Below, piece after piece: positions 1,706-26,335 of a stretch of DNA of 26,335 nt. Position 1 is the stretch's first letter. Each line of letters opens with the position of its first letter. The notes beneath the pieces were generated by a model. It was given only the letters and a program-made list of their open reading frames with translations, did not search any database and was not told the origin of the DNA. The position numbers and the translations under genes are program-made. This stretch comes from Stramenopiles sp. TOSAG23-3 (Eukaryota), in the NCBI GenBank assembly GCA_900128585.1, contig LT642146.1:62001-88335 (forward strand), given 5' to 3'.

Positions 1706-1805
1706 AAATTTTAATTTACTTAAAATAACAGCCAATTTTTTCGTTTATATTGAGAAGTACAAAAGGAGCTAAAAAGTATAAAATAACAGCCAATTTTCTT
1801 GTTTT
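1706..1805. repeat. Dispersed motif A cluster (2 copies of ACAGCCAATT)
   Basis: ACAGCCAATT at 1728-1737 and 1786-1795; 22-mer TAACAGCCAATTTTCTTGTTTT at 1784-1805 is identical to 9148-9169 and 22889-22910. Confidence 0.9.
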
Positions 1806-1888
1806 AAAAAAGTAATTTTCTGTATAAATATGATCTTCTTCATGTAATCATATCGCGAATGTGTACGTCTGCTCCTTGTTTTATAAAT

Positions 1889-3367: not shown

Positions 3368-3398
<31 letters not shown>

Positions 3399-7008: not shown

Positions 7009-7071
7009 GTACCAGGTACCTTTAATACCGGTATTAATACCAGGTATTAAATACCTGTACCTGTACCAGGT
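7009..7071. repeat. Nested TACC(A)GGTA palindrome cluster
   Basis: Perfect TTAATACCGGTATTAA 7022-7037 overlapping TTAATACCAGGTATTAA 7034-7050, flanked by GTACCAGGTAC and TACCTGTACCTGTACCAGGT. Confidence 0.85.
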
Positions 7072-7713: not shown

Positions 7714-7775
7714 ATATATATATAAAAATAAAATCCAATTTTAAATGTACACCCGTGGCTTGGGAGTTGGAAAGC

Positions 7776-8198
7776 TCACAGTTCGTCGCCTCGAAGTTTC
7801 AGTTTTTTGTTCTCTTCTTCCACCTTCTTCAATCGTCTGCGAAGCTCCACAACTTCATCCGATTCCTTTCGCCCCTTTCCGTCCCTTTTGCTATTCTTGA
7901 CTTTTCGGTAGGCCAGCTTCCTTTCCATTTGAATATTTTTGTGGGCCTGCTGCCTGCTTTTCTTTATGTGGTGATGCCCGTGATGGGTTTGTATGTGCAC
8001 CAACGCCCATATCGCTATAGCTACAAAGGCGAAAAACGTGTACAGAAACTTTTTTGCCAAAGGCGACGGATTAAATATGATCTTATGGTGCTCGCGTGTC
8101 ATAGCAAGGTTGCGAAGAGTACCTTTCACAAAGCTGGCGCCATCTTCCCGTTTCTTCTCCGTTTTTGACTGTAAACGATTGGCCCGCGCCGCTGACAT
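7776..8198 (-). CDS. Small single-TM protein with His-rich patch, coiled coil and C-terminal GDEL
   Basis: GAAATG start; TM FLYTFFAFVAIAIWALV; HHGHHH; ELRRRLKKVEEENKKLK; ends RGDEL. Confidence 0.6.
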   Translation of the reverse strand: MSAARANRLQSKTEKKREDGASFVKGTLRNLAMTREHHKIIFNPSPLAKKFLYTFFAFVAIAIWALVHIQTHHGHHHIKKSRQQAHKNIQMERKLAYRKVKNSKRDGKGRKESDEVVELRRRLKKVEEENKKLKLRGDEL

Positions 8199-8837
8199 TT
8201 CTGACCTTTACGCGAAGTGTGCGCGGGAGCCCCTCTCTATATTTGTGTTTTTGAAAGACAATACCATTCCAGAGATGCAGGGGAAAAAACATCTGTCTTC
8301 AACAAAACTCAAACCGACGATTGTTTCCGAAAAAAATGAAGCCAAGACAAGAAAAAAAAAGTACTGCATTTGGTAGAACTAAAAATGTTTTAATTCACAG
8401 TGTATAATAATACGGCATCATGCAGACCTATTTATTATAGTTTTCTAGACGTCTGTAGTTGTATAGTACTGGTAGTACTATAAAAAACTAAAATAACTAC
8501 TAAATATATTATTACTTCCTTTATTATTTACATAATATATGTGATACCAAGGAGGAGGTAAATAGACAGACAATGAAAATAATAGCTCCTCTTCTGGCTT
8601 CGTACTCTGACCTCGCTCGATGTCTACGAGGACGTATTTTAATATAATACCACCGACCGGGCTTTCCTCTTTATTATTATTATTAATATATTATAGAACA
8701 AGCAGTGAGTTTTTTAAATAATGTTTTCGTTGTTTGTTGTTGTTCGTTTTATTATATGGCATTGAAGAAAAAAACATACTTTTTTATTACGTACTTCGTT
8801 AATTATATAAGAGGGTAAGTTACTTCTCGTTAATATA

Positions 8838-8918
8838 TGCTTTAAGACTCTCACTTTATAATTCAGTCATTGATTCTTCGAAATCAAAAATTGTAGTATA
8901 TATGAGAGTCTTAAAGCA
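8838..8918. repeat. Motif B inverted repeat (MITE-like)
   Basis: TGCTTTAAGACTCTCA 8838-8853 and exact reverse complement TGAGAGTCTTAAAGCA 8903-8918, 49-nt spacer. Confidence 0.85.
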
Positions 8919-9147
8919 AACTATAAGAGATATAATTTGTTGTTGTGTTTTAAATAAATATACAAAAGTGTAATATGATACTTTCTTTCTTCTCCTTCTT
9001 CCTTAGAAGTTTTTTCTGAATCTGGTACGTTTGGCCAATTATCGCAGTCGGAACTGTTGTTCAACCACCGACTATCGAGAACTAACAAGGAACTAGGCCC
9101 AAAAGTAAACCTGCTACTTTTTATTTATTGTTAGGTTAATACCAAAT

Positions 9148-9169
9148 TAACAGCCAATTTTCTTGTTTT
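9148..9169. repeat. Dispersed motif A (single copy)
   Basis: TAACAGCCAATTTTCTTGTTTT. Confidence 0.9.
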
Positions 9170-9281
9170 TATTGTTAATATATCCATAATATTATTTTAT
9201 TTTCATAACATATTCACATATAATTAGTTCTTTTCACATAGGTCGAGATCCACAAATAATTAAAAAGTACATTTTCTCCTT

Positions 9282-9487
9282 TTGTACACATTTCAGTGAT
9301 TCTTGTTGTTCTGTTTTTTTAAAACACCCTTCTTTGCTCAGTCTCCCCACAGTTGTACACATCTCAGTGATTCTGTTTTGCTAAAACACCCTTCTTTGCT
9401 CAGTCTCCCCACAGTTGTACACATCTCAGTGATTCTTGTTGTTCTGTTTTTTAAACATCCTTCTTTTGCTCAGTCCCACCACCTGTT
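9282..9487. repeat. Three-unit minisatellite (71, 62, about 73 bp) overlapping the ABC transporter stop codon
   Basis: Units start with TTGTACACAT at 9282, 9353 and 9415. Confidence 0.9.
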
Positions 9488-11340
9488 GCAGACGATGGTT
9501 CAACTCTTGCTTGTGTCTGTTTAAAGAACTCGCCCTCTGCGAGACACAACGACTGGTATGTGCCACTCTCCGCAATCTTGCCATCTTTCATGTACAAAAT
9601 TTGTTGTGCTTGACGTAAATCATCCAAATTGTGCGTCACCATGATCGTGGTGGCTTGGCATGCCAAAGCATCGAGTGTGTGTTGCAGCTGCTGCGCCACC
9701 AACCCGTCAAGCCCAGTCGTCGGTTCGTCCAGCAAATAAATCGTTCCATTCTTCAACATGGCTCGGGCAAGGGCGACCCGTTGCTGTTGCCCGCCGCTTA
9801 GTTTGGCGCCTGATTCGCCGACATCTTTGTCAAGGCTCAGTTCCGACCCCTCCTCCAGCACCAACTCGGCACTCTTCGCGGCCGCCAACAATTCGGTGTC
9901 ACTGGCTCCTTGCCGCCCATACTCGATGTTCTTCCTTATGGTGGATGCAAAAAGCTGTGATGTCTGAGTAACTACACTAAACGCTGACCTCAAGCTAGCA
10001 CCCGTCATCGTCTGAATGTCAACACCATTGATATATATTGACCCAGTGGTTGGGCGATAGAAGCGCAACAACAGCCGAAGAATGGTGGATTTGCCACACC
10101 CACTGGCTCCCACCAATCCCATGGTCTGCCCTCCTTCAATTTTGAAAGACACTTGTTCCAAAATCATTTTATCCTGGTAGGAAAACGAAACGTTGCGAAA
10201 TTCAATCGAAGGATTTGGTGTCAATGGCAATTTCACAGCACCGGGCTGATCAATGACGCTGGATCGGGATTTGACGAATTCAGACAATGCTTGCGCTTCA
10301 AACAGAGCACTTCGAAGTTCGGTCAGGTCGGCGGCGTACTTTTCCAAACCGCCAACAAAGGTAAAGAAATAGAAAAACAAACCAGCAAGTTCCAGAGAAG
10401 TGGCAGTGTTGGCCAGCGCAGGAATAATCACAGCAACACACAACACCGTGATACCCGTGGAGATAATCTGAAGCACCGCGGATGAAATATGCGTTCCCTG
10501 CAGTACGGCCGACATTTTGGTGCTTATGGTTTGAAAGGATTTTTCCGCGTTGGAGACTTCGTATTGCACACGATCGAAAAAATGCGCTCGCTCGTAGGAT
10601 CCAGCAATGGCCAATAGCTTTCCCCACTCCGAGAACATGGCGGTCATCATGTCTTTGTTTCGAATCGCCGCTTGTTCAGCAGTACGGTAGGCGGCGACGG
10701 TAAAGGCCACGTATAGCACTATCAATGCCAGAGCAATTGGCCCAAAAAAAATGCCCAGCAAGACGACACCGACCACCAGATTCAACACAGTCGAGAGAAC
10801 GCCACCGTACAAAGCAGGCAAAAGCTTGTCCACATTCATGAATATTTTACTGATGAGCTGTCCAAACTTTCCCGTTGGTGTCGATATCATTGAATCGTGT
10901 TCCATCTCAAATAGTTTTTGGATCACTGAAGTTCCATGCGCTACTTGCAGGCTTCCTTTTAATTGGTCGATGATTAAACTGTTGCAAGGAGGAGACACAC
11001 GGCTCACCACCTGCAAGACACCGATAACAACGAACCACACGTACAATTCGGTGGTCATCTTGCCAAGGTCGAGCTCTTTTTGAACAACGGCAAATATTAA
11101 AAATGACACACTTCCAGATATTGTGAGCAGTTGAAGAACAACCCATTTGAAGAGAAAGGAAGGGTAGTCGCGGAGCGCCACTACTTGTTTGTTCATGATG
11201 TTTAACTCTCGAAAAAAATCAAACGGGGGAGGTCCCGAAGGCACATCTGCCGCAACCTTTGTTTCCAGAGGCACCTTCTGATCTTCGTTGCCCGCTTCAA
11301 TGTCATCAGTCTTCGTCAGTTCAACTTCTTTAACTTCCAT
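9451..11340 (-). CDS. ABCB-type half transporter (TMD+NBD), ATM1/HMT1/ABCB6-like
   Basis: Several TM segments; Walker A GASGCGKST, signature LSGGQQQR, Walker B YLLDE, H-loop VTHNL; TILRLLLRFY and TGKFGQLISK resemble the ATM1/HMT1 group; first ATG at 11340 (ORF track uses TTG at 11367). Confidence 0.9.
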   Translation of the reverse strand: MEVKEVELTKTDDIEAGNEDQKVPLETKVAADVPSGPPPFDFFRELNIMNKQVVALRDYPSFLFKWVVLQLLTISGSVSFLIFAVVQKELDLGKMTTELYVWFVVIGVLQVVSRVSPPCNSLIIDQLKGSLQVAHGTSVIQKLFEMEHDSMISTPTGKFGQLISKIFMNVDKLLPALYGGVLSTVLNLVVGVVLLGIFFGPIALALIVLYVAFTVAAYRTAEQAAIRNKDMMTAMFSEWGKLLAIAGSYERAHFFDRVQYEVSNAEKSFQTISTKMSAVLQGTHISSAVLQIISTGITVLCVAVIIPALANTATSLELAGLFFYFFTFVGGLEKYAADLTELRSALFEAQALSEFVKSRSSVIDQPGAVKLPLTPNPSIEFRNVSFSYQDKMILEQVSFKIEGGQTMGLVGASGCGKSTILRLLLRFYRPTTGSIYINGVDIQTMTGASLRSAFSVVTQTSQLFASTIRKNIEYGRQGASDTELLAAAKSAELVLEEGSELSLDKDVGESGAKLSGGQQQRVALARAMLKNGTIYLLDEPTTGLDGLVAQQLQHTLDALACQATTIMVTHNLDDLRQAQQILYMKDGKIAESGTYQSLCLAEGEFFKQTQARVEPSSATGGGTEQKKDV

Positions 11341-12427
11341 CGGTACGACTTCAGCTTTGGTGGTCAAGTAATTTAGTACAATTCAGATAAAAGTGGCGAC
11401 ACTGTTTTTTGACATTAGCTTTTTTTTGACACTATCTTTTGAAAATCCAAAGCCAGAAAAACAATTCAACCACCGGTGGGTGGGTGTGAACACACCACTA
11501 CCCAGGGGAAGGCAACGAAAGAATATTTTTATTTTCGTACTGTGTACCCGTACTACTGTATGATTTAAAAAATAATACTTCTACTACTACTTAAGGCTCC
11601 ATTCCAATGACTGGTTGTCGTTTGTCCTGTTGCTGTATGGTTATGATATATTTCTACTTCGTTTATCCTTAAATTATCTGCTTATTTAATTTCCTTTTTA
11701 GCGCTGTTCATTCTCAGAACACGGCGGCGGCGGCGGCTATGATCATAAAAAATTGAATCATGTTGTTTTTTGAAAATGAAATGGAGTGCATCGTCATGAT
11801 TTAATAATTAATATAAGATGAGGAGAAGAAAACCTTGAAGCCCACCCCACAGTGACAATGTATTACATTAGAAGACGACTATAGCTTATAGTCTCTAGAC
11901 TAATAAAAGCAACAGTCCTCCTCCAGAAGAAAAACCTTTACCAAGTCAAGCGGTCCGGTCCACCCGGTCCCTCTAATAAAAGTCATACAATCAGCTTATT
12001 TGGGCTGATGCTGTGTTGATGAAATCATCAACCTTGTTTGTTTTATAAATTGAACCATCATCATCATCACATTTTGTTGTTGTGGTGCTTCTCTCTGTTC
12101 TTTTTCAACGAAAATTATGGTCTGCAATTTAAACCAATGCTGTGATTGGTAATATTATACGGTATAGTAGATTTTTTTAATTTTTTTTCTGTGATACTCT
12201 ACTTCTTCTTCTCGCTACTACTACTATCATCCTTCTTTGTCTTCATTCTTATCCCCAGTCTTCCCCACATTCTCTGTGCATGACGGAGTCTCATCTACCA
12301 CATATGATAATTATCGGCGGTTCATTTTAAAGCCCTTTGGTACACAAATTGAAGTTTGTAGACAGTTTATTGGCAGGCACCACACACAATACTTTAGAAG
12401 TCCCCAAATAATTAACCAGAGTTGATC

Positions 12428-13081
12428 ATGCAGTTTGCCAACGAACGGAGCGATCTTGTCGATGCTCTCAGCGCAATGGCAGTCAAACATATTCTAAAAC
12501 TTGGTCGCGAGGGGAAAGAACCGATTGAAATAGCTCATTCTATTCAAAATTTGTTTCATTCTGTAAACAAGACGAAGTTGATCCAGAACCGTAGACAGGA
12601 GGAAGCAGTCTCCAAGCAAAAGGTTGAAACGAAGTCTGAGTCCCAGCCAAGAAAGAGGCAAGGCGTGAACCTGCGTTTTTGTGAGGCCTGTGAAGCTGGA
12701 GACAGTGCTCTGGCGTCAGAGCTACTGACTACAGACCTTGTAGATATCAATTGCCGAAACGAAGAAGGTCTTTCCCCCCTTATGATAGCAGCCGGCGAAG
12801 GACACAGCATTATCGTCAAACGCATTTTGAAGGAGAGAAGCGTAGACGTGAACATGGTGGACTCTGACGGCGATGACACTGCATTGATGTTGTCTGTCGA
12901 AGGTGGGCACTATGACTGCGTGGCAATGTTGGTCAACTACCCTGGGATTGACTTGCTTCACGAAGATCGATTCGGAGAAACGTGCCTGCGGTTAGCAGCG
13001 ATACGGAAGCAGTTTGCAATTTTTGAGCTTTTGAAGACGGCAATGACTGGCAGCGGCAAGCGGCGCCCCAAAACACCGTGA
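12428..13081 (+). CDS. Ankyrin-repeat protein
   Basis: DINCRNEEGLSPLMIAAGEGH, DVNMVDSDGDDTALMLSVEGGH, EDRFGETCLRLAA; first ATG at 12428. Confidence 0.85.
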   Translation: MQFANERSDLVDALSAMAVKHILKLGREGKEPIEIAHSIQNLFHSVNKTKLIQNRRQEEAVSKQKVETKSESQPRKRQGVNLRFCEACEAGDSALASELLTTDLVDINCRNEEGLSPLMIAAGEGHSIIVKRILKERSVDVNMVDSDGDDTALMLSVEGGHYDCVAMLVNYPGIDLLHEDRFGETCLRLAAIRKQFAIFELLKTAMTGSGKRRPKTP

Positions 13082-13431: not shown

Positions 13432-14364
13432 TTATTTTTTCCGTTTGGATTCTACACGTGCCGCAAATTTACTCAAAAGGGTATCGAACCTGAGCTCGTA
13501 CTCTTGGGAACCTTTTTCTAACCCGTCAAAATAACCCCGTTCCTCCATATGCTTAACAAATTTTCGAAACAGTTCAATCTCTTCGTCGCTGAGCAAATCG
13601 ATGGGCTCGTGGGGAGCTTCCCCATATCCACCCTCTGCGCGCGGGGGGGCGCCCTTCTCCACCCCCCCGTCCTTTGACGGGTTCATAGACTCAAGGATTT
13701 CAGGATTATGTTGAAAATAGGATTGAAAAACGTCGTCCTCCCCGAGGCCATACTCATCTACCCCCAACGAAAAAAAATGGGTGCCGTTGTTGTTCAAATC
13801 ATCCCCGACCTTCATGTACCCCACCCCGTTGCTCCTGAACATGGCGGGCAAGTTTCGCATTTTCCCGCCCTCATTCTTTCCGCGAGGGTACCACTCTCCG
13901 TGAAAATTCTGGGGCGCAAAGATTATCGACACTGCGCCCGTGCACGATTGAAAGCCCCGCAGTGCGTCGATCAAAAAACAACTATCCGACGGTCGTAGGC
14001 GTACCTGAAGCATGTCCTTTTCAACCTGTGTCTCTAAGTGCTCGTCGGGGTACACAAACCCAAAAATTTGGCCAAACTGAATGAAAAATCTACCGGTCGT
14101 TATGTTGTGCGATTCGTGCTCTCCTTTGCTCAGTATAGTGCAGAGCAGCAGAACCGTCTGCTTCTCGCCACGGCTCTGTTTGTCGCCCAGTTCCGTTTCC
14201 AACAAGCACGGCATGCCCGTCGAGGCTTTTTCCTGCCGAAGTTCGTTGTCATGCGACAGCCACAGAGAGATATCGTCTATTGCCCCTCCCCCAGCGCGCC
14301 CCGAGGTTGGCTTTTGAACAGCCCTCCCCCCTCCCCCAGCGCTGCTACGAGCACGGGACGACAT
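13432..14364 (-). CDS. Hypothetical protein with small C-terminal helical module
   Basis: GC-rich ORF from AAAATG at 14364; the upstream 83 codons of the ORF-track call are AT-rich low complexity. Confidence 0.7.
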   Translation of the reverse strand: MSSRARSSAGGGGRAVQKPTSGRAGGGAIDDISLWLSHDNELRQEKASTGMPCLLETELGDKQSRGEKQTVLLLCTILSKGEHESHNITTGRFFIQFGQIFGFVYPDEHLETQVEKDMLQVRLRPSDSCFLIDALRGFQSCTGAVSIIFAPQNFHGEWYPRGKNEGGKMRNLPAMFRSNGVGYMKVGDDLNNNGTHFFSLGVDEYGLGEDDVFQSYFQHNPEILESMNPSKDGGVEKGAPPRAEGGYGEAPHEPIDLLSDEEIELFRKFVKHMEERGYFDGLEKGSQEYELRFDTLLSKFAARVESKRKK

Positions 14365-14940
14365 TTTAAGGTGTACTCCACACCAACTAAACAGACTATG
14401 ACGGTATATTAAAACGCACCCTAATGTATGTACAAAGAAAGGTTCCAACGTCCTGCCAGAAGGATTATTGTTCGAAACAAACGAACAAACAAGTGAATAA
14501 GTAACGAAATTACAAAACAGGAAAAGAAAAAAAGTAGTGTTGCGTTTTCTTGTTTTTTGTTTTGTTGTTGTTCTTCTTCGTCGTTTTCTTGGTACTACTA
14601 CACTAGATACCATAATAATAAATAGATATAATAATAATTATTACATCTCTCTCTTATCTCAACAAAGTTCAAATTGGTTTTTTTGCGTTCGTTCGTTCGT
14701 CGTTATCGCCGTTGTGTTCCTTTTGTTCACAGGGATTCCAAAGGAAGAAGAAGGATTTGAAGTACGAGGTAGGAGAAGAGTAGTAGACTAGCCGCCTATT
14801 AATATGTACACGAGGACCTTGTCGCCTCGAAGAATACCAAGGTATTTAAATAGAGAATTGATGTAAATTAATAGCAAGGAGCAATAATACGAAAAATATT
14901 TACATGTAGTAGTGTGAGATTATGTTACCCTTTTTTCTTT

Positions 14941-14961
14941 TCTCTCTCTCTCTCTCTCTCT
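14941..14961. repeat. (TC)n microsatellite
   Basis: Direct reading. Confidence 0.9.
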
Positions 14962-15016
14962 GTGTAGATCTTTAATAGATGATGCTATTCGATGTATAAG
15001 TTGATGTTTCTTTTTG

Positions 15017-15140
<124 letters not shown>

Positions 15141-15736
15141 CTCTCCTCCCTCCCTATTATTACATCATCATATCATCAGTCAGTCAGCACAGTCAGTCCT
15201 CGAAGCCTCTCTCTTTCTTCTTCTCTCTCCTCTTCTCTTCTCTTCTTCTTTTTGTTATTATTATATTTTTACTATTCTCTATTACGGTATTATACGGTAG
15301 TAGGTCTAATATAATAATACCTGCTGTAGCTAAATTATTATTAAATAATATATAATAATAGACTAATAATAATAAAATAATAAGAATTTTTTTTTTTTTT
15401 TACCAACTCCTCCTTCTTCTTTTTTGTTGTTGTTGTATGTTGGTATATATTATACTTTTACTACTATACTTGTAGTCCTTTATTTTTTTAATTATTAATA
15501 ATATTAGTTAATATAATAATAAAATAATATTAATTATCTTAAAGATATATATATCTTCGATCGTATATATAGAGTTTATAAACAAATTTTACATTCATTA
15601 ATGCATGAAAAGTAACACAAACAACTTGATTCGAAAAAGACAAATCCGCCACCTTCCCCGGTTCAACGTCTTTTCGTTTGTTCTTTTAAAATAGAAAGTT
15701 GTACGCGATAACGTTACTACCACGGACGGTTGTGCA

Positions 15737-17080
15737 ATGGCTTCCCTTGCAAATCAACGAAACTCGACAGACTCGACGGACGAGAACTTTCTTGCGCCGC
15801 CAAGCAACGAGTTGAAGAGGATGGCGTCCCGGTCCCTTGAAGATCGGGTAAATCAGGAACCACCGACACTGCAGAGAAAGAACTCTGGCCTTGACATTTA
15901 CCAACGGGCAATGTCGGGGGATGACATATTTAAGGTCCCGTCCACGGACAGGCGGCGCCGCGTGAACACGAAGCGCCGAAAGCAGCGGGAGGACCCCAAG
16001 TTGCAAAAGAAGTCCTCGTTCGAAGAGTACTTGGACTCCGCCCTGGGATCGCTACGCCCGGAGGAAGGAGGCACGACACCGAAAAACCAGGAGGCGACAG
16101 ACCTGTCTTGGTTGGACAATAAACTCCCGGAAGTGTTAGATACAGTCTTCGACAGCGACGGGGGGCTCGTCCCTATGAATAGTGAGGATAGCGACGGCCT
16201 TGGGCTTTCCAGAAAGGCCAGCCGCAACAGCTTTACGATGAACCCCGTGGGGAACATGGTACGGTGGCAGTCGGATGATAGTGCAATAGAGACAGGCAGC
16301 GGCGGCCTGGGGATCGTAAGGCAGCTGTCCCAAGACCTGGGCGGGATGGACCTTGGGAGCGGGCTGGACCTGGGGAGCGGGCTGGACCTGGGGAATGGGC
16401 TGGACCTGAATGGGCTGGGGTTGGATGGGTACGGGCAGATTCCATTCGATATGATGGAAGATTCCCCAAAGAACATACCTCGGAGGACCGCGTTTGCCGA
16501 AAGCAAAGGCCGGGGGGGATCTACCCCAGCGTTTCGAAAGAAGAAGGGGAACGGGCGCTTGCAGAAGAAGGGCTCGCTCGTTTTGAGCGAGGACGACGGC
16601 CCGGCGCCCTCCACAAAACCTGCCCCGTCCACAAAACCTTCCCCGAGGAAGCCGGGAAAGGGCGCCCCTGGCGAGGAGGAGCGCATCGCTCACACTGTCG
16701 CCCAACAGAAACACCGGGACAACCACAGGAACAAGATGGACAGGCTCAAGACAATGGTGTTTACGTTAGTGGACGTTGGGGACAACGAGAAGAATATAGG
16801 CCGCCTGACAAAGATGGATATTTACACTGCCGCAATCGGGTTGGCGAAAGGGGAGAAGAGCGGGGTGATCGTGGAACGCTTGCTTGAGTATAGAGAGGCG
16901 AAAAAGACGTCAGGGAGCGGCGGAAAGGACCGGTTTAAGTATCTCCGTGCCGAGGAGAAGGCAATGCTTGAGAAGCTCCAGAAGCTGGTTTCTAAGCCGG
17001 AAACGAAAATGACGAAAGCAAACGCACTGACCGACGCATTAGTGTTCATAGGAAAGAAGTACGCAAAGAGGCTGGGGTGA
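15737..17080 (+). CDS. Atypical bHLH-type transcription factor with a second HLH-like unit
   Basis: RIAHTVAQQKHRDNHRNKMDRLKTMV...RLTKMDIYTAAI matches the bHLH layout; second unit MLEKLQKLVSKPETKMTKANALTDALVFI; long disordered N-terminus with NLS-like basic patches. Confidence 0.65.
   Translation: MASLANQRNSTDSTDENFLAPPSNELKRMASRSLEDRVNQEPPTLQRKNSGLDIYQRAMSGDDIFKVPSTDRRRRVNTKRRKQREDPKLQKKSSFEEYLDSALGSLRPEEGGTTPKNQEATDLSWLDNKLPEVLDTVFDSDGGLVPMNSEDSDGLGLSRKASRNSFTMNPVGNMVRWQSDDSAIETGSGGLGIVRQLSQDLGGMDLGSGLDLGSGLDLGNGLDLNGLGLDGYGQIPFDMMEDSPKNIPRRTAFAESKGRGGSTPAFRKKKGNGRLQKKGSLVLSEDDGPAPSTKPAPSTKPSPRKPGKGAPGEEERIAHTVAQQKHRDNHRNKMDRLKTMVFTLVDVGDNEKNIGRLTKMDIYTAAIGLAKGEKSGVIVERLLEYREAKKTSGSGGKDRFKYLRAEEKAMLEKLQKLVSKPETKMTKANALTDALVFIGKKYAKRLG
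16334..16430 (+). repeat. Intragenic 18-bp G-rich minisatellite encoding GLDLG(S/N) repeats
   Basis: GGGCTGGACCTGGGGAGC-type units. Confidence 0.85.
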
Positions 17081-17176
17081 GCGGAGGAGCGTTTGTGTTA
17101 ATTCATGCATGGCGCGCAATGTTTGCGTTCCCTTGGAAAATCCAAGAGCAATATGATATTATCAAAAACCAAAATA

Positions 17177-17199
17177 TATAGTATGCTTTAAGACTCTCA
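17177..17199. repeat. Dispersed motif B (single copy)
   Basis: TATAGTATGCTTTAAGACTCTCA. Confidence 0.85.
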
Positions 17200-17382
17200 T
17201 TTTAAATCAAATACTAACTTCAAGTCCAACCCTAATCCTATCTCGATTTTTTAGTTTGATCTTTTAAATTTCTTAATTTCGTTTGATGGTTGTCAATCAT
17301 CATTACTGTTAAAATAAAAAATTCGTACCAGTAATCGCATGCTCTGACCGAGCGACTCAATCGTTTGCACATGTTCATAATT

Positions 17383-18129
17383 TTACTGTGTACGATGGAA
17401 CACAAAAATTTTTCCGTCGACGCAACCGACCCCTTCATTGACACCGTCCGGTGCCATGGCGATCAGGGCCTCGTCAACGGTGATGCACTCTTTCAATTCG
17501 TAGCCTGCTTTTGAGGCTTCTTTCGTCACAAAATCATGCGTGACACCATGCCTTGGCACATGACAGAGCACAAACACAGGTGCCAACTGTGCACACGTTT
17601 GCACCAACGGTGCTACTATTTCTAACTTATAACAAACGTCCGCCGCCAGGACCACGTCAAAGCTTCCACTGATGGAGCAGTTTTCAATGTCCTCTGCTTC
17701 CCCCCACCGCAGCTTTCGAACGATTGTGTTGGATTCCACGGACAAATTTTTCTCCACGTTCACGTTTATCAAGTTCAGGGCAAACGGATCTGCGTCCGTC
17801 AAGACGATATGCTCGCACCATTTCGAGAGGGCCAGCCCCAAAATACCGCTTCCTGCCCCCAACTCAATAACGCGCTTCCCCGTCACGTGCAGCACGCGGT
17901 CACTACTCTTCGCAAGGTACGTCGCCAGAAGGAGAGAGCCCGGCCACGGGCACCTTCCCGAAATTTCCACGTTCGCATCCACCAACTTTGACAGAACTTC
18001 AAGCGGCAGCTGTTCCGGAAGAGACTGAATCAAAAATTTCTGCCCAGCAACGCGTACCTCTTCTTCTTCGTAATCTATCAGTTCGTTGGTTTCTTTCCAA
18101 AGCTCAAGCTCCTGACCGGCAACGGACAT
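17383..18129 (-). CDS. Seven-beta-strand protein methyltransferase, METTL21/Methyltransf_16 family
   Basis: GRCPWPGSLLLATYL, motif I VIELGAGSGILG, post-I VLTD, LRWG, motif II FDVVLAADVCY (DxxY); first ATG at 18129. Confidence 0.9.
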   Translation of the reverse strand: MSVAGQELELWKETNELIDYEEEEVRVAGQKFLIQSLPEQLPLEVLSKLVDANVEISGRCPWPGSLLLATYLAKSSDRVLHVTGKRVIELGAGSGILGLALSKWCEHIVLTDADPFALNLINVNVEKNLSVESNTIVRKLRWGEAEDIENCSISGSFDVVLAADVCYKLEIVAPLVQTCAQLAPVFVLCHVPRHGVTHDFVTKEASKAGYELKECITVDEALIAMAPDGVNEGVGCVDGKIFVFHRTQ

Positions 18130-18628
18130 CGCGGAAGTTTCTTTTGTCCGTCGTGGAGTCGGTGTTGGTCCTGGATGTAGTGTATATGCCAATATATGAA
18201 ATAAACGATGATTTTCCCTCTAAACTAATAAGCCAAGGATATATCATACATCAGCAACAATGAAATAAAATAACTTCCGTTCCCTCTCAGTCTTACTTAC
18301 AAAATTGATTTCATTCTATTAAATACAAACTCTATGCAAAGACAACACGAAAAACAGGCCACACTCCTCGTATTAGAATTTGTAATAAAAGAAGAAGTAC
18401 TTACTGACTATTATTATAATAAATACGGAGGATTTATTTTATTATTTTTTATACTACCATGGTATTATTATACTACATCATCATACACTACTCCTCAATA
18501 CTACTACCGTACGTACTATATCTATACCCACTATAACTAAATCTATTTATAATTAATACCCACTTCTCTCTCTCCTCCTTCTCTTTGTTTTTTGGAACTA
18601 TTTACACTAATACTATACCGTATAATAC

Positions 18629-18708
18629 GAAGAAAGAAGAAAGAAAGAAAGAAAGAAAGAAGAAGCACAAAAAAAATAAAGAAGAAAGAAGAAAGAAAAG
18701 AAAGAAGA
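18629..18708. repeat. GAA/GAAA purine tract
   Basis: Direct reading. Confidence 0.85.
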
Positions 18709-19106
18709 GTCGTCGGTCGGTCAAAAATCATCTCTGTTTTGTTGTTGTTGTTTTAATTTTTCTTTCTTTATTATTATTATATTACTAAATTGTTGTAGTA
18801 AGGTAAATTTTGTTTTAGTTTAGTTGTGGGAGTTATATTCGATGCTCTTCTTCTTCTTCTTCGCTCTTTTTTTATCTGTTGTGTATCGATTTTTTAGCTT
18901 CTTCGTTATTATTATTTTGTTCATTGCATAATATAGTAAAAGATCAAGAAGAAATGGAGAGGAACAGATTGAACAGTTTTAAACTTGGAGCTCAGAACGA
19001 CCACCAAAGCGTTTCCGTGCATAGCAAAGTGGCAAAAATATTTGCAGGCACTGTTCATAGTGAGCGTCGTTAGAGTCCAACGGGTTAGTTGGACGTTCTT
19101 AGTACC

Positions 19107-20726
19107 ATGGCGTATGCACCGAACACTGCTTTCCCGAGGCAACTTGTGGAGGAGGAGCGGCCGCGCTCGTTCCAAGGCCATGCAGAAGCTTCCGCCGGGC
19201 TGTCCCGCAACCTTAGTGGTCGGATTGGGGGAGAAGGAAGGTCCGATTCAATGACCCAATCTACCGTAACGATGAGGCACCAGTGGCGCCAGCACACAAA
19301 CACGAAAGGGATTATCCCGGGCCCACGCTCCGGGGCCGCGTCGGTGGTCGTTGGGAACAAGCTGTACGTGTTCGGAGGCTACGGTGGTAGTGGCCGCCTG
19401 GCAGACTTTTTCGAGTTTGACTTTGATACGAAGACGTTCCAAGAGATCGAAATGGCAGGCCACCACCCCGGGGTGAGGGAGAACAACGGTGTCGTCCTGT
19501 ACAAGAACCGCCTTTACATATTCGGTGGTTACAACGGGAACGATTGGCTGAACGATTTCCACGAGTTTGACTTGCAAACGAAAGTGTGGAGAAAGATTGA
19601 ACCGGCAGGGGCGTGCCCATCGCCACGGTTTGGATACGTTGCCGTGCGCCACGTCGACACCTTCATTATATTCGGGGGGTACGATGGCACGACCTGGTTG
19701 AACGACATGCACGAACACAATTTTTTGACGAAAACATGGGGTTCTATACACCCGACGGGGACGATCCCGAGCGTCCGAAGTTGTCCGAGTTGGACAGTGC
19801 ACAACAAGAGTGTGTTCATTTTTGGGGGATACGACGGTGTGCAGCGGATGAACGATTTCTTCGAATACCGCTGCGACACAAGGGTTTGGTCCACAGTGTT
19901 GGGAAGCGGCCCCGTCCCCTCCCCTCGCTACTTTCACGCGTGCATCATGTACCGAAACCAGATGTACGTATTTGGGGGGTACAATGGCGCCCATCGCTTG
20001 AACGACATGTATTGCTTCGATTTCGACACGCACATGTGGGCGATCGTGGAGTGCTCCGGGGAATTGCCCTCTGGGCGAAGTAGTCTGGTTGCGCAGGTGT
20101 ACGGGAATTCTTTGTTCACGTTTGGCGGGTACAATGGACGCCACGTCCTGAACGATTTTTTCGAGTTTCGTTTTGAGCCCGTCGCAATCCCGCCCCCAAC
20201 ACTGATCCACGATATGCGGCGGCTGATGAACAATGAGCAGTTTAGTGACGTAGAATTCATAGTGGAAGGGCGATCCCTGTATGCGACCAAAGCACATTTG
20301 GCCATTCGTTCAGAGCATTTTCGCGCCCTACTTTTCGGCGGAATGAAAGAAAGCCGCTCCTCAAAGGTTACTATTGAGATCAGCGACGTGCCCTACCCTG
20401 TGTTTTCCAAAATCATCGAGTTTCTCTACACCGACAACGTCACCGATATATCTAGTGACATCGCCGTCCCGCTCTTGATGGCTGCAGAACGCTATTTGCT
20501 GGGTCGTCTGAAGGGCCTGTGCGAAGATTCTATTCGTAAGTCCATTACAGTTGAGAACGTTATTAGTTTGTTCATGGCCTCCCATCGCCATAGAGCTGCC
20601 GGCCTGAAGGAGATATGTTTGGATTTCATCATCGACCACCTGGACACTGTGAAAAAAAGCACAGGGTTTCGCGATTTGAAAGATGAACCCGAGCTGTTGA
20701 TGGAGATTATCATGGTTGGCACCTAA
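19107..20726 (+). CDS. Kelch-repeat + BTB/POZ protein, LZTR1-like
   Basis: Six Kelch blades (FGGY.G...LND); BTB FSDVEFIVEG...HLAIRSEHFRALLFGGMKES; BACK-like tail; first ATG at 19107. Confidence 0.92.
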   Translation: MAYAPNTAFPRQLVEEERPRSFQGHAEASAGLSRNLSGRIGGEGRSDSMTQSTVTMRHQWRQHTNTKGIIPGPRSGAASVVVGNKLYVFGGYGGSGRLADFFEFDFDTKTFQEIEMAGHHPGVRENNGVVLYKNRLYIFGGYNGNDWLNDFHEFDLQTKVWRKIEPAGACPSPRFGYVAVRHVDTFIIFGGYDGTTWLNDMHEHNFLTKTWGSIHPTGTIPSVRSCPSWTVHNKSVFIFGGYDGVQRMNDFFEYRCDTRVWSTVLGSGPVPSPRYFHACIMYRNQMYVFGGYNGAHRLNDMYCFDFDTHMWAIVECSGELPSGRSSLVAQVYGNSLFTFGGYNGRHVLNDFFEFRFEPVAIPPPTLIHDMRRLMNNEQFSDVEFIVEGRSLYATKAHLAIRSEHFRALLFGGMKESRSSKVTIEISDVPYPVFSKIIEFLYTDNVTDISSDIAVPLLMAAERYLLGRLKGLCEDSIRKSITVENVISLFMASHRHRAAGLKEICLDFIIDHLDTVKKSTGFRDLKDEPELLMEIIMVGT

Positions 20727-20838: not shown

Positions 20839-21406
20839 TCTAATGGAATACAAAGAGGAACAGGAACGAATGTTTTTTTTCATTTTGGTTTTTAAAACCA
20901 CAACATGCTCAGCTGCTGCTCTGCTGCTACGTGTCCAACAGCTATTATATATACCAAGGGTTGTGTAATAATACCCGTAATAGCATTGCTATTTGATGAT
21001 GAACACGCTACCGTTGTAGTAGTACCGTTTGTTGATCGATAATGAAAGAAGGAGAGTCTATAACATTACACAACATACACTAAAATAATGATGTACACAA
21101 TACACTGCTTCCTGTAGTAATAATGAAAAAAAGAAAGCAGAAAGAAGAAGAAGAATGAATAAAATTTTTCAAAAAATCCTCCTCCCCTCCTACTCCTCCT
21201 CCGCGCCCGCAGCAGCCTAGCCGAAGAAGAACAAAGAAGAACAAAAAGGAGGCACATGACTGAAAAAAATGATACTTCCCGTGTTGGACAACGCTACGAT
21301 AAAAATATCACCAATAAACCTCTACCAGGTAACTCGCAGCTTGACAAGTAAATTCAGTATCCAAAACTGACGGATTGAACGATAGACCACCTTTTCTTTC
21401 CTTCCA

Positions 21407-22687
21407 ATGGCAGCCCACCTCAGGATACTTGTGCTGTGTTTACTGGCCCTTGCAGTGTCAGGTGCAGCACGCCAGTCTGATGCACCGACCGCGCTTGTTA
21501 AGAACATGACGGAAGCGTACAAGACCGAAAAAGTTATGGAAGGACGTGTTGTGTTCGCGTTTTATTATGACTCATCTAAGAACGGGGGAAATTCTCCAGT
21601 CGGGTGGAGCAATACGTTCAGCACTTTGGAAAAAGTTGCCGACGAGCTCAAGGACATCGCCGTTTTGGGGTATATCGACTCTTCGGTAGAGCGAAAATTG
21701 TCGCTTCAAGCAGGAATTAAACAATCGGTAGAATTGAGAGTTTTCCTGCCACTTTTCCCAGACTCGCAAATGAGGTTTGACGAGCTCATATACGATGCCA
21801 ATAGATTCCGGCCCGATTTTGAATCCGCAAGTTTGCGGCGCATACGACGCTTCGTGAAGGGTTTAGACGTAGGCGGAGAACAGTTCGCCCCAGTCCTGAA
21901 AAACGCGTTGCAAGCTATTGTGCGCAAAGAGGCATTGGGCGACCATCTGTCGTCAATATTAGAAGTGACGTCCGAACTTAAAAACAAAGGGACCGATTTA
22001 TCGATGCCTGCAAGCTTAATACTGTCACAGTTGAAAGCGATCAGAAAACAGGTAAAACTGAACAAAACTATCGACAGTGTATTAGAGGCCCAGTTCGTTT
22101 CTCTCTACAGCAACATTGCTGCCGGGCAGTGTGGAATAACAGAATTTTGCTGTAACACTTACCGACATCTTCAAGTCATCGTTATCATCTTCAATGCGCA
22201 CAACAACAAACAGTACAATTCCAGCGAAGTCTACACGGCAATGAAAGCTGCAAAGGGAAGCGAAGAGTCGAAGTCCAGGGAACTAGCCGGTTTGCCTACC
22301 GACAAAGAATTGGAGGAGATCCAAACCGAAGAGGAAATGTACAGGGTGTTGCTTAACGTGGACAAGCTTAAATCGGACTGCGACGAACAGATTGTTGAGA
22401 TGGAAGAATCTATAATTGTGCTTATGCAGGACAATTTAGGGGTCCATGAGCTCACAACGAAAGGTCGTCTAAAGGATATACGGAAACTCGTGGACGACCG
22501 CCAACCAACTGATAGTATTAAAGGTTCCTATTTTAAAAAGTACGCAAAACGATACGCAAAGTGCATGATGTCCGGAATTGTTCGAAATCGGATTAGTGCC
22601 ATGTACGACAAGCTCCACTTAGCTCTCAAGGAAAAGTTTAAATTGGACCCGACTTATTACGAAGTCGAAGCTGTGCCAACGATGTGA
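21407..22687 (+). CDS. Secreted/ER protein with redox-inactive thioredoxin-like N-terminal domain and helical C-terminal region
   Basis: Signal peptide MAAHLRILVLCLLALAVSGA; VVFAFY...LEKVADELKDIAVLGYIDSSVERKLSLQAGI...LRVF follows a PDI-type Trx fold without CxxC. Confidence 0.6.
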   Translation: MAAHLRILVLCLLALAVSGAARQSDAPTALVKNMTEAYKTEKVMEGRVVFAFYYDSSKNGGNSPVGWSNTFSTLEKVADELKDIAVLGYIDSSVERKLSLQAGIKQSVELRVFLPLFPDSQMRFDELIYDANRFRPDFESASLRRIRRFVKGLDVGGEQFAPVLKNALQAIVRKEALGDHLSSILEVTSELKNKGTDLSMPASLILSQLKAIRKQVKLNKTIDSVLEAQFVSLYSNIAAGQCGITEFCCNTYRHLQVIVIIFNAHNNKQYNSSEVYTAMKAAKGSEESKSRELAGLPTDKELEEIQTEEEMYRVLLNVDKLKSDCDEQIVEMEESIIVLMQDNLGVHELTTKGRLKDIRKLVDDRQPTDSIKGSYFKKYAKRYAKCMMSGIVRNRISAMYDKLHLALKEKFKLDPTYYEVEAVPTM

Positions 22688-22786
22688 CGAGAATCCTGAA
22701 CGTGTTTGCGTCCTGAACTTTTCGTATGAGGTAAACTTACGATTCCTATCCTAAGTTTACTAAATCATAAACTTGATGCCTTTGAT

Positions 22787-23015
22787 AAAAAACAAGGAAA
22801 TTGGCTGTTATTTAATAAAAACTATTAGAAAATTGGCTGTGGAAGCTAAATTTAATTATGTTACTTAAAATTGGCTGTTATTTATAAATAACAGCCAATT
22901 TTCTTGTTTTTAATTGGCTGTATTTATAATAAAAATTTAAAAAACGAAAATTGGCTGTTTTTTTATTTAAAAACACAAGAAAATTGGCTGTTATTTATTA
23001 AGTAATTAAATTTAT
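22787..23015. repeat. Motif A array: 7 copies of AATTGGCTGT including a 36-bp perfect palindrome
   Basis: Forward copies at 22799, 22831, 22869, 22912, 22949, 22982; inverted copy at 22891; AAAATTGGCTGTTATTTATAAATAACAGCCAATTTT at 22867-22902. Confidence 0.95.
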
Positions 23016-23105
23016 TATAAGTTTCTTTAAAATCATAGTATGTTATCATAGACTAACACACACTTTAATTAAAACTTTTTATCTCCTTAAAGAAAAAAAA
23101 AAAAA

Positions 23106-23127
23106 TATAGTATGTTTTAAGACTCTC
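23106..23127. repeat. Dispersed motif B (single copy, one mismatch)
   Basis: TATAGTATGTTTTAAGACTCTC. Confidence 0.8.
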
Positions 23128-23179
23128 CTTAATTTTAAATAAATACCGTAAAATTTATAAAATTTAAGTTTAAAAACAT

Positions 23180-25060
23180 TTAGGCCTTGCATTTGAGTTT
23201 GTAACTATCCAATGCTTTCACACCGTCCGCCCTCAAGTGATTTTTGTACGACGTGATGCCACCATCTTGTTTCCAGGGTTTGATTGATTTATTATCGCAA
23301 ACCCAAATTTCGTCTGCTACTTGTGAAAGCAGCCTGAAATCGTGCGAAACTAGAACCATACCACCCTGGAACTTGTTGATAGCATCGGCCAAAGAGTTAA
23401 TACACTCCATATCCAAATGGTTGGTAGGTTCGTCAAGCATGATGATATGGGGCCGCTCGAGCGCCAAAATGCAGAAAACAACGCGTGTTTTAAGCCCGTC
23501 ACTCATGGTCGACATTTTCATCTGCTGGCGGTCCCCTTCGATGCCATACGAACCCAAAATCCCTCGCCATTGCTCTACTTCGGGGTTGATCTTATTCCCA
23601 TCGTTACTGTACGGCGGACAAACGCCGTCCTTGTACACTTCCATGACATAATCTAACGGATTCATGTTCATGTCAAGCTGGTCTTCGGAGTGCTGGTTGT
23701 AGTACGCAATCTTCAAGTGGGAGTGGCGGCTGATTTCTCCTTCGCAAGGAATTAGCTCACCGATCATTAGCTTCAACAGCGTCGATTTTCCCGCCCCATT
23801 GGGGCCAACCAGGGCGACACGGGAATCACTGTCGATGCCGAAATCAAGATTACTGTACAAGTAATCTTCCTTTTTGCCGGAGTAGGAGAACGAGACGTTT
23901 TTAAACGCCATCACGGGCGGCGGAAGCTGCCCACAGTTCGGCCATTTGAACCGGTAAACTGACTCAATGTGTGGTGCCTGGATCAGGCCGGCTTCGATCA
24001 TTTTGTCAATAATCTTTTGCTTACTCTGGGCTTGCTTCACTAGATTAGAGTACGTACCGCAAGTTCTGATAAAGTGCTGCAGCCGCTGAATGTCATCTTG
24101 CTGCTTTCTGTACTGCTTCAGCTGTTGGGTTTCCTTCTCCTTCTTCGTCTTTACGAACGTGTCGTAATTTCCTCCCCAGACCAGAAGCTTCGAATCGTGC
24201 GTTAACTCCATGATATTGGTGCATACCGTGTTGAGAAACTCCTGGGAGTGAGATATGACAATTAGGGTCTTCTTGTACCTAGACAAAAAGTCCTCCAACC
24301 AAATGCATGCCCCAAGATCTAAATGGTTCGTAGGCTCGTCCAGCAAGAGCAAAGAGGGCTGCAGGAGCAGTGCTTGGGCCAGGGCCACCCGCATTCGCCA
24401 TCCTCCACTCATGTCTTTCGTTGACCGGTGCATCATGGGCTGGCTGAAACCCAAACCGAAAAGCAGTTCCCCGGCCCTGGCTTCTAGCGTGGCAAGGTCT
24501 TGTTCGTCCAATTCTTCGCAAATATCAAGGATTCGCTGGGACTCCGGGTCCTCCTCCATGAGTGCCTCCATTTCGTCTTCCAAGTGCCTGACCTTGTCCA
24601 TCACGATGTTCATTACGGACTCCATTGCAGTGGTGTCGCTGGGCTTTGCCTCCGTGTCCAGATGGTAAATATCAATGGTCTCTGGGATCGGTAGTTCCCC
24701 AGACGCAAGGACCTTGAGAAGCGTGGACTTTCCACTACCGTTGCGCCCGATCAAGCCGTACCGGCGCCCGTAGTTCATGTGCAACTCGGTGTCCTCGACG
24801 AGCCTGCGGCCGTGGAGCCCAATCCCAAAGGAGGAAATTTGTACATCCCTGGAATCTATCCGCGAGTCTAGGACGCCTGTAACAGAGACGTGGTTCATGA
24901 CGTCATCCGCATCGAGCACCTTCTCCCCAACCTTCTTTAAGCTCGCTGCCGCGGCACCCAAGATGCCGTCCTCCGCCTTCTCCAGCTTTTCGGCAGCTTT
25001 TTTCTTCGCTTCTTGAGCTTTCTTAAACTTGGCCGCTTTTCCGCGTTTACCTTTCCCCAT
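23180..25060 (-). CDS. ABCF2: ABC-F ATPase, ABCF2/Arb1 type
   Basis: Two NBDs without TM segments (GRNGSGKST/MSGGW/LLLDEPTNHLD; GPNGAGKST/MSDGL/MLDEPTNHLD); TGVLDS..SRDVQI and LVKQAQSKQKIIDKM are characteristic of ABCF2. Confidence 0.93.
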   Translation of the reverse strand: MGKGKRGKAAKFKKAQEAKKKAAEKLEKAEDGILGAAAASLKKVGEKVLDADDVMNHVSVTGVLDSRIDSRDVQISSFGIGLHGRRLVEDTELHMNYGRRYGLIGRNGSGKSTLLKVLASGELPIPETIDIYHLDTEAKPSDTTAMESVMNIVMDKVRHLEDEMEALMEEDPESQRILDICEELDEQDLATLEARAGELLFGLGFSQPMMHRSTKDMSGGWRMRVALAQALLLQPSLLLLDEPTNHLDLGACIWLEDFLSRYKKTLIVISHSQEFLNTVCTNIMELTHDSKLLVWGGNYDTFVKTKKEKETQQLKQYRKQQDDIQRLQHFIRTCGTYSNLVKQAQSKQKIIDKMIEAGLIQAPHIESVYRFKWPNCGQLPPPVMAFKNVSFSYSGKKEDYLYSNLDFGIDSDSRVALVGPNGAGKSTLLKLMIGELIPCEGEISRHSHLKIAYYNQHSEDQLDMNMNPLDYVMEVYKDGVCPPYSNDGNKINPEVEQWRGILGSYGIEGDRQQMKMSTMSDGLKTRVVFCILALERPHIIMLDEPTNHLDMECINSLADAINKFQGGMVLVSHDFRLLSQVADEIWVCDNKSIKPWKQDGGITSYKNHLRADGVKALDSYKLKCKA

Positions 25061-26140: not shown

Positions 26141-26335
26141 AAGAAGTAGAAGAAGAAGAAGAAGAAAGAAGAAGAAAAAAGAAGAAGATGAAGAAAGAAG
26201 AAGAAGAAGAAAGAAGAAGAAAAAGAAGAAGAAGATGAAGAAAGAAGAAGAAGAAGAAAGAAGAAGAAGAAGAAAGAAGAAGAAGAAGAAGAAAGAAGAA
26301 GAAGAAGAAGAAGAAAGAAGAAGAAGAAGAAGAAG
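26141..26335. repeat. (GAA)n-based microsatellite running off the window end
   Basis: GAA run with GAAA and GATGAA interruptions. Confidence 0.95.

Follow-up and report, generated by a model that had tools for sequence, protein, structure and literature searches.

A long, nearly invariant, modular and arrayed sequence element behind genes of the stramenopile TOSAG23-3

Introduction

How are the ends of genes marked in a compact protist genome? The signals at which eukaryotic transcripts end are usually short and degenerate. The stretch of DNA studied here, 26,335 nucleotides (nt) of contig LT642146.1 from Stramenopiles sp. TOSAG23-3 (positions 62,001 to 88,335; hereafter called the window), instead carries long, nearly invariant and ordered sequence blocks behind its genes. 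The most frequent among the copies described here, motif A, had been pointed out in a first-pass annotation made from the sequence letters alone, which described a conserved 10-mer and 22-mer, a seven-copy array and a perfect palindrome. We asked what motif A is, and tentatively rate it as a cis-acting element of gene ends, which stands out by its length, its near-invariance, its modular build and its array of copies.

Results

Motif A has an invariant core

The 10-mer AATTGGCTGT, which forms the core of motif A, has ten exact matches in the window, where a mean of 0.05 is expected, and none of 100 dinucleotide-preserving shuffles reached this number. These core matches start at 1728, 1786, 9150 and 22891 on the minus strand and at 22799, 22831, 22869, 22912, 22949 and 22982 on the plus strand; they are confined to three spacers, and seven of the ten lie within 22799-22991. 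The 22-mer TAACAGCCAATTTTCTTGTTTT, which had been said to be identical at three loci, does recur unchanged at 1784, 9148 and 22889; when up to three mismatches are allowed, it has seven matches where 0.01 are expected. With the 10-mer and 22-mer counts so far above the shuffle expectation, a chance origin of motif A was rejected.

The unit that is conserved is neither the 10-mer nor the 22-mer but a block of about 26 nt, AAAAACAAGAAAATTGGCTGTTATTT. Three copies are alike over a longer element of about 50-60 nt, roughly GAGGAAGCTAAATTTAATTACTTAAATAACAGCCAATTTTCTTGTTTTTAT, which has sharp ends. We aligned the block in register for 11 copies, ten from the window and one from an outside contig that is described below. 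None of the 110 cells in the core columns was changed, whereas 42 of the 176 cells in the 16 neighbouring block columns differed from the consensus (Fisher p = 3e-10). Beyond the block, 123 of 264 cells differed, which is about background for AT-rich DNA. All 11 copies contain AGCCAAT, followed by TT in ten copies and by TA in one. Motif A is AT-rich and strand-asymmetric, being T-rich on the ACAGCC strand, and it is not self-complementary.

At the rate of change seen in the flanks, an intact core would be left in only about 7% of the copies. The spacers hold no core copy with one mismatch, the sole match of this kind being inside a coding sequence (CDS), and the 28 matches observed at up to two mismatches equal the background (29.2 expected). 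A profile search with the block gave the 11 known copies scores from 22.8 down to 8.3 bits, and the next match, again inside a CDS, reached 4.7 bits. The mismatch search and the profile search thus indicate that the contrast between core and flanks is no artefact of defining the copies by an exact core. Since decayed cores are missing despite flank differences of about 24%, the core appears to be held constant, as would be expected of a recognised sequence rather than of a neutrally decaying repeat; judged from these letters, it looks like a selected recognition site.

No Rfam family matched at gathering score anywhere in the window, which answers a check proposed in the first-pass annotation, and literature string searches with 10-mers and 13-mers of motif A and of its sister block B (see below) returned no relevant motif of such kind, as judged by titles. 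A lineage-specific nature of motif A is supported. A likeness of the 22-mer to the dinoflagellate spliced leader was dropped, because position and spacing fit neither spliced-leader genes nor relict leaders.

Copies of motif A and architecture of the array

The copies of motif A are listed here with their strands and, where available, profile scores; spacers between genes carry the prefix S.

1723..1748, minus strand: motif A copy in convergent spacer S1; core 1728-1737; extended element 1696-1750, which resembles positions 1974-2024 of the outside contig
1781..1806, minus strand: motif A copy in S1; core 1786-1795; 22.6 bits
9145..9170, minus strand: motif A copy in S4 (tandem spacer), sense to the ABC-transporter ORF; block 280 nt and core 291 nt after its stop
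22789..22813, plus strand: array copy 1; block AAAAACAAGGAAATTGGCTGTTATTT; core 22799-22808; 20.3 bits
22820..22841, plus strand: array copy 2; core 22831-22840; deviating 3' flank GGAAGC; 15.9 bits
22864..22883, plus strand: array copy 3; core 22869-22878; left half of the palindrome; 14.7 bits
22886..22911, minus strand: array copy 4, the sole inverted one; core 22891-22900; full block; 28 nt identical to positions 1996-2023 of the outside contig; 22.8 bits
22912..22924, plus strand: array copy 5; core 22912-22921; flanks hardly conserved; 8.3 bits
22940..22963, plus strand: array copy 6; core 22949-22958; 18.3 bits
22972..22996, plus strand: array copy 7; core 22982-22991; 21.7 bits
22867..22902, no strand: perfect 36-nt palindrome formed by copies 3 and 4 head to head

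The seven copies of the array at 22799-22991 are as first described, but they are set at irregular core-to-core steps (32, 38, 22, 21, 37 and 33 nt), and their unit is the block of about 26 nt, or about 50-60 nt in some copies, in refinement of the words of 10 and 22 nt. Six copies are direct and one is inverted. Tandem Repeats Finder recognised only the right half of the array as tandem, with 2.0-2.5 copies for 22912-22998. A tandem satellite or minisatellite would consist of regular head-to-tail units, and was rejected in view of the uneven steps and the inverted unit. Inverted copy 4 pairs not only with copy 3, in the palindrome that had correctly been called perfect, but also with copy 7 (31 nt, 94%) and copy 1 (38 nt, 87%). 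RNA of the array is predicted to fold, on either strand, into structures more stable than those of shuffled sequences (z = -4.9 and -4.5), with hairpins within 22785-23001.

Motif A lies in spacers behind genes

All three motif A loci of the window lie in spacers that contain the 3' end of a gene, namely the convergent spacers S1 and S11 and the tandem spacer S4. No copy was found in the 5197 nt of the five divergent, promoter-only spacers or in open reading frames (ORFs) of at least 100 amino acids (aa), in full agreement with the first-pass annotation.

1524-1888: convergent spacer S1, 365 nt, between two stop codons
22688-23179: convergent spacer S11, 492 nt, between two stop codons

S4 (8199-9450) is a tandem spacer, because the coding remnant at 7276-7767 and the ORF 7776-8198 are both on the minus strand; it lies 3' of the ABC-transporter ORF and 5' of the next minus-strand ORF. 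At 9282-9482, a 62-nt tandem repeat in three copies (82% matches) overlaps the ABC-transporter stop and takes up most of the distance between this stop and motif A.

By spacer length, the chance that three motif A loci avoid the divergent spacers is 0.086; by length alone, their placement is suggestive and no more. When the sister blocks B and E are included, motif A occurs in S1, S4 and S11, B in S4, S8 and S11, and E in S8, and none of the five divergent spacers holds any of them. All four spacers with A, B or E contain a 3' end (length-based chance 0.038).

The cores of motif A are found 93 and 151 nt past the stop of the ORF 1889-2800(-), 291 nt past that of the ABC-transporter ORF and, in the array, 111-294 nt past that of the ORF 21407-22687(+), with the inverted copy 279 nt past the stop of the ABCF gene on the other side. 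The earlier estimate of about 90-300 bp after stop codons fits this range of 93-294 nt well. Measured to its beginning, the first module of a spacer follows the stop codon by 82, 97, 83, 78 and 46 nt at five gene ends of the window, and by 6 nt in the outside contig. That each copy reads on the sense strand of an adjacent gene holds in the tandem spacer S4, where the sense strand of the upstream gene shows A as AATTGGCTGT; in the convergent spacers S1 and S11 either orientation would satisfy it, and the outside contig shows the opposite orientation.

Motif A belongs to a set of ordered gene-end blocks

A k-mer census and a BLAST comparison of spacers against each other revealed further blocks, and motif A turned out to be one of several gene-end blocks that share an order, which the first-pass annotation had missed. 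Motif B, TATGCTTTAAGACTCTC (an A-run plus ATATAGTATGCTTTAAGACTCTCAYTTTA, with A-run and TATAG upstream), has four copies in the window against 0.08 expected. These and the other blocks are located as follows.

8836-8852, plus strand; 8904-8920, minus strand; 17182-17198, plus strand; 23111-23127, plus strand: motif B copies, all in the 3'-end spacers S4, S8 and S11
23093..23133, plus strand: motif B copy (A-run plus ATATAGTATGTTTTAAGACTCTC), past the motif A array by about 100 nt, with the ABCF stop 46 nt away
17164..17205, plus strand: motif B copy in convergent spacer S8, 83 nt past the stop of ORF 15737-17080(+)
8825..8936, no strand: inverted pair of motif B forming a long hairpin of 112 nt; predicted RNA fold -38.2 kcal/mol, z -7.3
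17270..17304, minus strand: motif E, AATGATGATTGACAACCATCAA..., 78 nt past the stop of the lysine-methyltransferase ORF; 87.5% identical to positions 1914-1953 of the outside contig
17229..17241, minus strand: telomere-repeat-like word TAGGATTAGGGT, between E and B; in the outside contig between E and A

Two spacers, S4 and S11, contain both A and B; in each of them B comes after A and points the same way, when read on the strand that shows A as AATTGGCTGT. Spacer S8 and the outside contig have one series in common, with A or B first, ACCCTAATCC next and the reverse of E last. Motif E contains AUGAUGA, which suggested a C/D-box snoRNA; this candidate was dropped, as no CUGA box follows.

The promoter side of the genes has words of its own. 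Motif D, TATTATACGGTATAGTA, which is nearly palindromic, was found at 12153-12169 and 18611-18627 and in part at 15287-15299, only in divergent, promoter-side spacers, and is by this position a candidate promoter element. Long CTT/AAG, TTTC and TC microsatellites occupy promoter-containing spacers (2985-3460, 14941-15250, 18629-18862, 21127-21245 and 26141-26335), and none is present in the four convergent spacers. With A, B and E after genes and motif D and microsatellites on the promoter side, the conserved words of this genome thus appear to change from one side of a gene to the other.

An outside contig repeats the arrangement

A bacterial and archaeal genome collection was scanned with the 20-mer AACAGCCAATTTTCTTGTTT, which gave three loci where about one is expected by chance (2 x 596e9 / 4^20). 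Two of them, L001 (1960-2030) and L003 (20-90), represent one GC-rich (60-62%) repeat of a bacterial metagenome-assembled genome (MAG); they have no further likeness to the window and were set aside as chance matches. The third, L002, is contig CALGTL010000157.1, which was binned as a Dehalococcoidia MAG. It has a GC content of 50% and consists of an ORF of 576-635 aa followed by AT-rich DNA, and it looks eukaryotic and mis-binned.

This contig shares 28 identical nt with 22885-22912 of the window and 50 nt at 88% with 23014-22965. It also matches motif E at 87.5% over 40 nt, and the word TAGGATTAGGGT likewise comes after E (1914-1972 of the contig). Past the stop codon, E (at 6 nt), the telomere-like word and the motif A block (at 88 nt) follow each other, and spacer S8 has the same order with B in the place of A. 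The outside contig is thus an independent case of motif A just behind a gene.

Codon usage of the outside ORF correlates with that of the window genes at r = 0.39, compared to 0.62-0.79 among the window genes themselves and 0.29-0.38 for bacterial controls, and does not show an origin from the same organism. We consider the contig related to the window because of the shared DNA blocks and of a protein fragment that the window encodes at 7276-7767 on the minus strand. This fragment is a truncated copy of the family of the outside ORF: it corresponds to residues 18-160, approximately, of a protein of 776 aa, is interrupted by an in-frame stop at 7402 and shows 75% identity over 102 aa (E = 5e-50). 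The family is an orphan one, whose clusters at 90% hold 116, 11, 83, 62, 35, 118, 5 and 6 members, compared to 6-7 for two single-copy genes of the window. In another database protein, a 60-aa piece of the family is fused to a DUF229/sulfatase protein. The family has no transposase or reverse-transcriptase domain and no Pfam function, and an ESM Atlas search was uninformative. It behaves like multi-copy DNA and is possibly mobile. About 35 nt beyond the motif A block, a long inverted repeat begins that runs to the contig end (about 2057-2432; 370 nt with arms of about 150 nt) and is absent from the window; it is either a foldback-like element, resembling a miniature inverted-repeat transposable element (MITE), or an assembly artefact.

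Genes of the window

Compact and eukaryotic in character, the window has long ORFs poor in introns (coding GC about 45-58%), which are separated by AT-rich spacers, and it contains no tRNA. Pfam assigned the following genes.

3-1523, plus strand: Nop2/RsmB-type methyltransferase
4046-6607, minus strand: ankyrin protein
9451-11367, minus strand: ABC half-transporter
12422-13081, plus strand: ankyrin protein
17383-18192, minus strand: lysine methyltransferase
19089-20726, plus strand: Kelch-BTB protein
23180-25060, minus strand: ABCF2-type protein

Pfam gave no family for the ORFs 1889-2800(-), 13432-14613(-), 15737-17080(+) and 21407-22687(+), and the last of these found no homologue except itself. 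The ABCF protein is 77-79% identical to unnamed environmental relatives and at most 56-61% identical to named ones (the haptophyte Diacronema, Amoebophrya, Symbiodiniaceae). The ABCF identities and the orphan ORF together point to a protist without a close sequenced relative.

Several features of the window were noted besides. The ORFs 3650-4396(+) and 4046-6607(-) overlap on opposite strands, and the last 130-150 residues, approximately, of the 853-aa ankyrin ORF look unlike protein; probably the two genes converge almost without a spacer, or an intron was missed. Inside this ankyrin-protein ORF, a repeat occurs three times at a spacing of about 156-165 nt (5769-6104) and encodes cysteine-rich units (CPAGKYGDRTGQ...), and the spacer that precedes the ORF contains an imperfect palindrome, TTTAATACCGGTATTAATACCAGGTATTAAA (7021-7051). 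The orphan ORF 15737-17080 contains an 18-nt in-frame tandem repeat, GCGGGCTGGACCTGGGGA, in 3.8 copies (16341-16418).

Discussion

Our tentative proposal is that motif A forms the recognised core of a module that marks gene ends in this lineage and acts in 3'-end formation or transcription termination, possibly as a protein roadblock. The invariant core, the lack of decayed copies, the restriction to the 3' side of genes, the regular distance from stop codons and the shared order of the modules together favour a functional gene-end element. The first-pass annotation had likewise suggested a lineage-specific 3'-end element: its placement in spacers after genes is borne out at three of three loci, against none of five divergent spacers, and by the outside contig, and the Rfam result agrees with its lineage specificity; its function is what we infer.

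In the mechanism that we envisage, transcription would pass the stop codon, run through about 50-100 nt of unique 3' sequence and meet an A-rich tract and then the invariant AATTGGCTGT core. The transcript would end, presumably by cleavage, at the A-rich tract just before the core. A sequence-specific factor might recognise the core on the DNA or on the nascent RNA, and once bound could promote 3'-end formation and release of the polymerase in the manner of a roadblock or fail-safe terminator. The seven-copy array with its one inverted copy could then be a strengthened barrier that works from both sides, keeping apart two convergent genes, the orphan 21407-22687(+) and ABCF (23180-25060, minus strand), and motifs B and E would be sister modules of the same system. 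If these modules were terminators or insulators, they would constitute a readable code of gene boundaries, which could aid gene calling in metagenome-assembled protist genomes and supply compact terminator parts.

Several observations weigh against such a role. The position statistics are weak (p about 0.04-0.09) and have 26 kb and one outside locus as their base. Three of the seven spacers with a 3' end (S3, S6 and S10) hold none of A, B and E, so that these modules cannot serve as the general signal for poly(A) addition or for termination. The outside contig shows ACAGCCAATT when its sole visible gene is read in the sense direction, opposite to S4, although the contig ends 400 nt further on and a convergent partner is possible. 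Exact identities of 22-28 nt between unrelated loci exceed what a protein-binding site usually needs, and fit copying or RNA pairing better. In addition, the outside motif A block adjoins an ORF of a high-copy orphan family and the 370-nt inverted repeat, a hint of mobile DNA. A drop in GC content at the module boundary was inconsistent and was not used.

The exact identities and the setting of the outside block lead to the view that motif A could be a very small dispersed mobile or selfish repeat, either a module of transposon ends or an element like the bacterial repetitive extragenic palindromic (REP) sequences and their hairpin-forming doublets (REPIN), which accumulated downstream of genes where insertion is tolerated. 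In that case the core would be preserved because the mobilising enzyme binds there, and local duplication would have produced the array. We consider this rather unlikely, but it would explain why unrelated loci have 22-28 nt exactly in common and why the extended likeness over about 50-60 nt has sharp ends. It would equally account for the variety of arrangements, from single copies through a direct and a head-to-head pair to a cluster, for the mosaic in which A comes after E and the telomere-like word in one place and B does so in another, and for gene ends without any module. The outside block just after the high-copy ORF, beside the inverted repeat, and the truncated, stop-interrupted family copy in the window point the same way. 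Against mobility, neither terminal inverted repeats nor target-site duplications were seen by eye in the aligned flanks, and the borders are ill-defined. A suggestion of subterminal repeats of a foldback-type element was not supported, as the array has six direct copies and one inverted copy instead of two inverted arms, S1 has two direct copies and S4 a single one, and terminal inverted repeats are lacking. The unit is only 26-60 nt long, and we know of no class of eukaryotic transposons with so small a unit. Decayed copies are absent in spite of flank differences of 24%, the spacing between stop codons and modules is regular, and no transposase or reverse-transcriptase domain was found in the orphan-family ORF. 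If motif A were mobile after all, it would be among the smallest dispersed repeats known in a eukaryote, indeed the smallest, and an analogue of bacterial REP elements.

Other explanations would leave motif A in place and give it a different task. An ordinary transcription-factor site, with a Myb-like TAACAG and a CCAAT-like AGCCAAT, would make the array a cluster of sites that enhances or drives the neighbouring genes or an unannotated non-coding transcript. An invariant 10-bp core with degenerate flanks has the usual shape of a protein-binding site, the copies cluster at steps of 21-38 nt, and CCAAT is present in 11 of 11 copies. We nevertheless regard this as improbable, since motif A is found in none of the five divergent promoter-only spacers, S1 (365 nt) and S11 (492 nt) lie between two stop codons with no room for a gene, TT or TA after CCAAT is unlike the NF-Y flanks, and a block of 26 nt is long for one factor. 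The part of the first-pass annotation that spoke of a protein-binding array with an AGCCAAT box is therefore retained for the invariant core and variable flanks, and is not supported for classical NF-Y, for which flanks and position are wrong. Distinctly improbable, in our estimate, is a small-RNA system in which transcription of the loci that hold inverted copies (A, 22881-23001; B, 8825-8936) yields hairpins that are cut to about 22-25 nt, with the single copies at other gene ends as targets. Each family does have one hairpin-forming locus and several single copies elsewhere; the arms of A (31 nt at 94%, 38 nt at 87%) and the 36-nt palindrome come with fold z-scores of -4.9 and -4.5, the B hairpin with -7.3; the exact identity of 22-28 nt between loci is of small-RNA size; and the sole Rfam matches in E-value mode were to microRNA (miRNA) precursor models. 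These matches, however, are far under the gathering scores (MIR172 32 versus 70 bits, MIR9563 29.5 versus 90 bits) and reflect hairpin shape only. Furthermore, the best-conserved part is the central 10-mer and not one end, as for a seed, and the hairpins could be by-products of local duplication. The more specific scenario that small RNAs from the A and B hairpins pair with the single copies and direct the formation of transcript ends or the silencing of read-through is very improbable; if true, an uncultured protist lineage would define its gene boundaries by RNA guides and not by degenerate poly(A) signals. Least probable of all is a replication-origin recognition sequence, comparable to the autonomously replicating sequences (ARS) of budding yeast and placed in gene-end spacers with the least interference from transcription. 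Yeast origins prefer convergent spacers, and motif A is an AT-rich, strand-asymmetric element in two convergent spacers and one tandem spacer. Yeast origins are described as intergenic and as interacting with incoming transcription (PMC6314782). Three loci within 21 kb would be denser than needed, and B and E share the distribution of A and would require the same explanation. To our knowledge, motif A resembles no origin consensus.

Comparison with known systems

Subterminal regions of En/Spm (CACTA) and foldback transposons carry many copies of 10-12 bp words within about 200 bp in both orientations. The motif A array differs from these in that it lacks terminal inverted repeats, a second end and inverted arms, and its single or double copies elsewhere lie outside any transposon context. 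The long, near-perfect hairpins at 8825-8936 and within 22785-23001 are like those of miRNA precursors, with no Rfam family at gathering score. A closer parallel in size is found in bacteria, where REP elements, bacterial interspersed mosaic elements (BIME) and REPIN have units of about 35 nt that lie after genes or between convergent genes, singly, as inverted hairpin doublets or in mosaic clusters. Motif A shares this size class, the placement at gene ends and the single, inverted and clustered mosaic occurrence. The bacterial units, however, are each an imperfect palindrome moved by a RAYT transposase, whereas motif A lacks self-complementarity, and no transposase of this kind is in sight.

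With the NF-Y CCAAT box, motif A has AGCCAAT in common in all 11 copies, and two steps of the array, 32 and 33 nt, recall the CCAAT-box clusters about 32-33 bp apart that are known in some promoters. The NF-Y consensus prefers C/G and then A/G 3' of CCAAT, unlike the TT or TA seen here. Motif A also differs by lying after genes, with all its window loci 83-291 nt past stop codons, and not at -60 to -100 from start sites, and by conservation well beyond the NF-Y consensus. Connelly and Manley are said to have found in 1989 that a CCAAT box can be part of an RNA polymerase II (Pol II) termination signal.

Yeast 3'-end signals of the type TAG...TATGT...TTT are resembled by motif B, which has an A-run, then TATATAG or TATAG, then TATG(C/T)TTT. 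The yeast signals are short and degenerate, whereas motif B is about 30-55 nt long, nearly identical between loci and also present in inverted orientation. UAUAUA is named as the motif of Hrp1p/Nab4p in a yeast termination study (PMC5052057).

The nearest model for the gene-end module that we propose may be the roadblocks of Saccharomyces cerevisiae. In that study, Reb1p, Rap1p and Abf1p bound downstream of transcription units are reported to block Pol II physically and to aid termination, acting together with nearby RNA motifs and protecting the next gene, with an effect that is relative to the direction of the blocked transcription (PMC5052057). The yeast sites (TTACCCG for Reb1p) are single, mostly promoter-proximal and about 7-8 bp long, whereas motif A is about 26 nt long, arrayed sevenfold and absent from promoter-only spacers, and a role in termination would be ascribed to it by analogy. 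What motif A has in common with the roadblock sites is its place shortly downstream of genes, with the first module 46-97 nt past five stops of the window and 6 nt past the stop of the outside contig, its invariant core and its multiple copies in an array.

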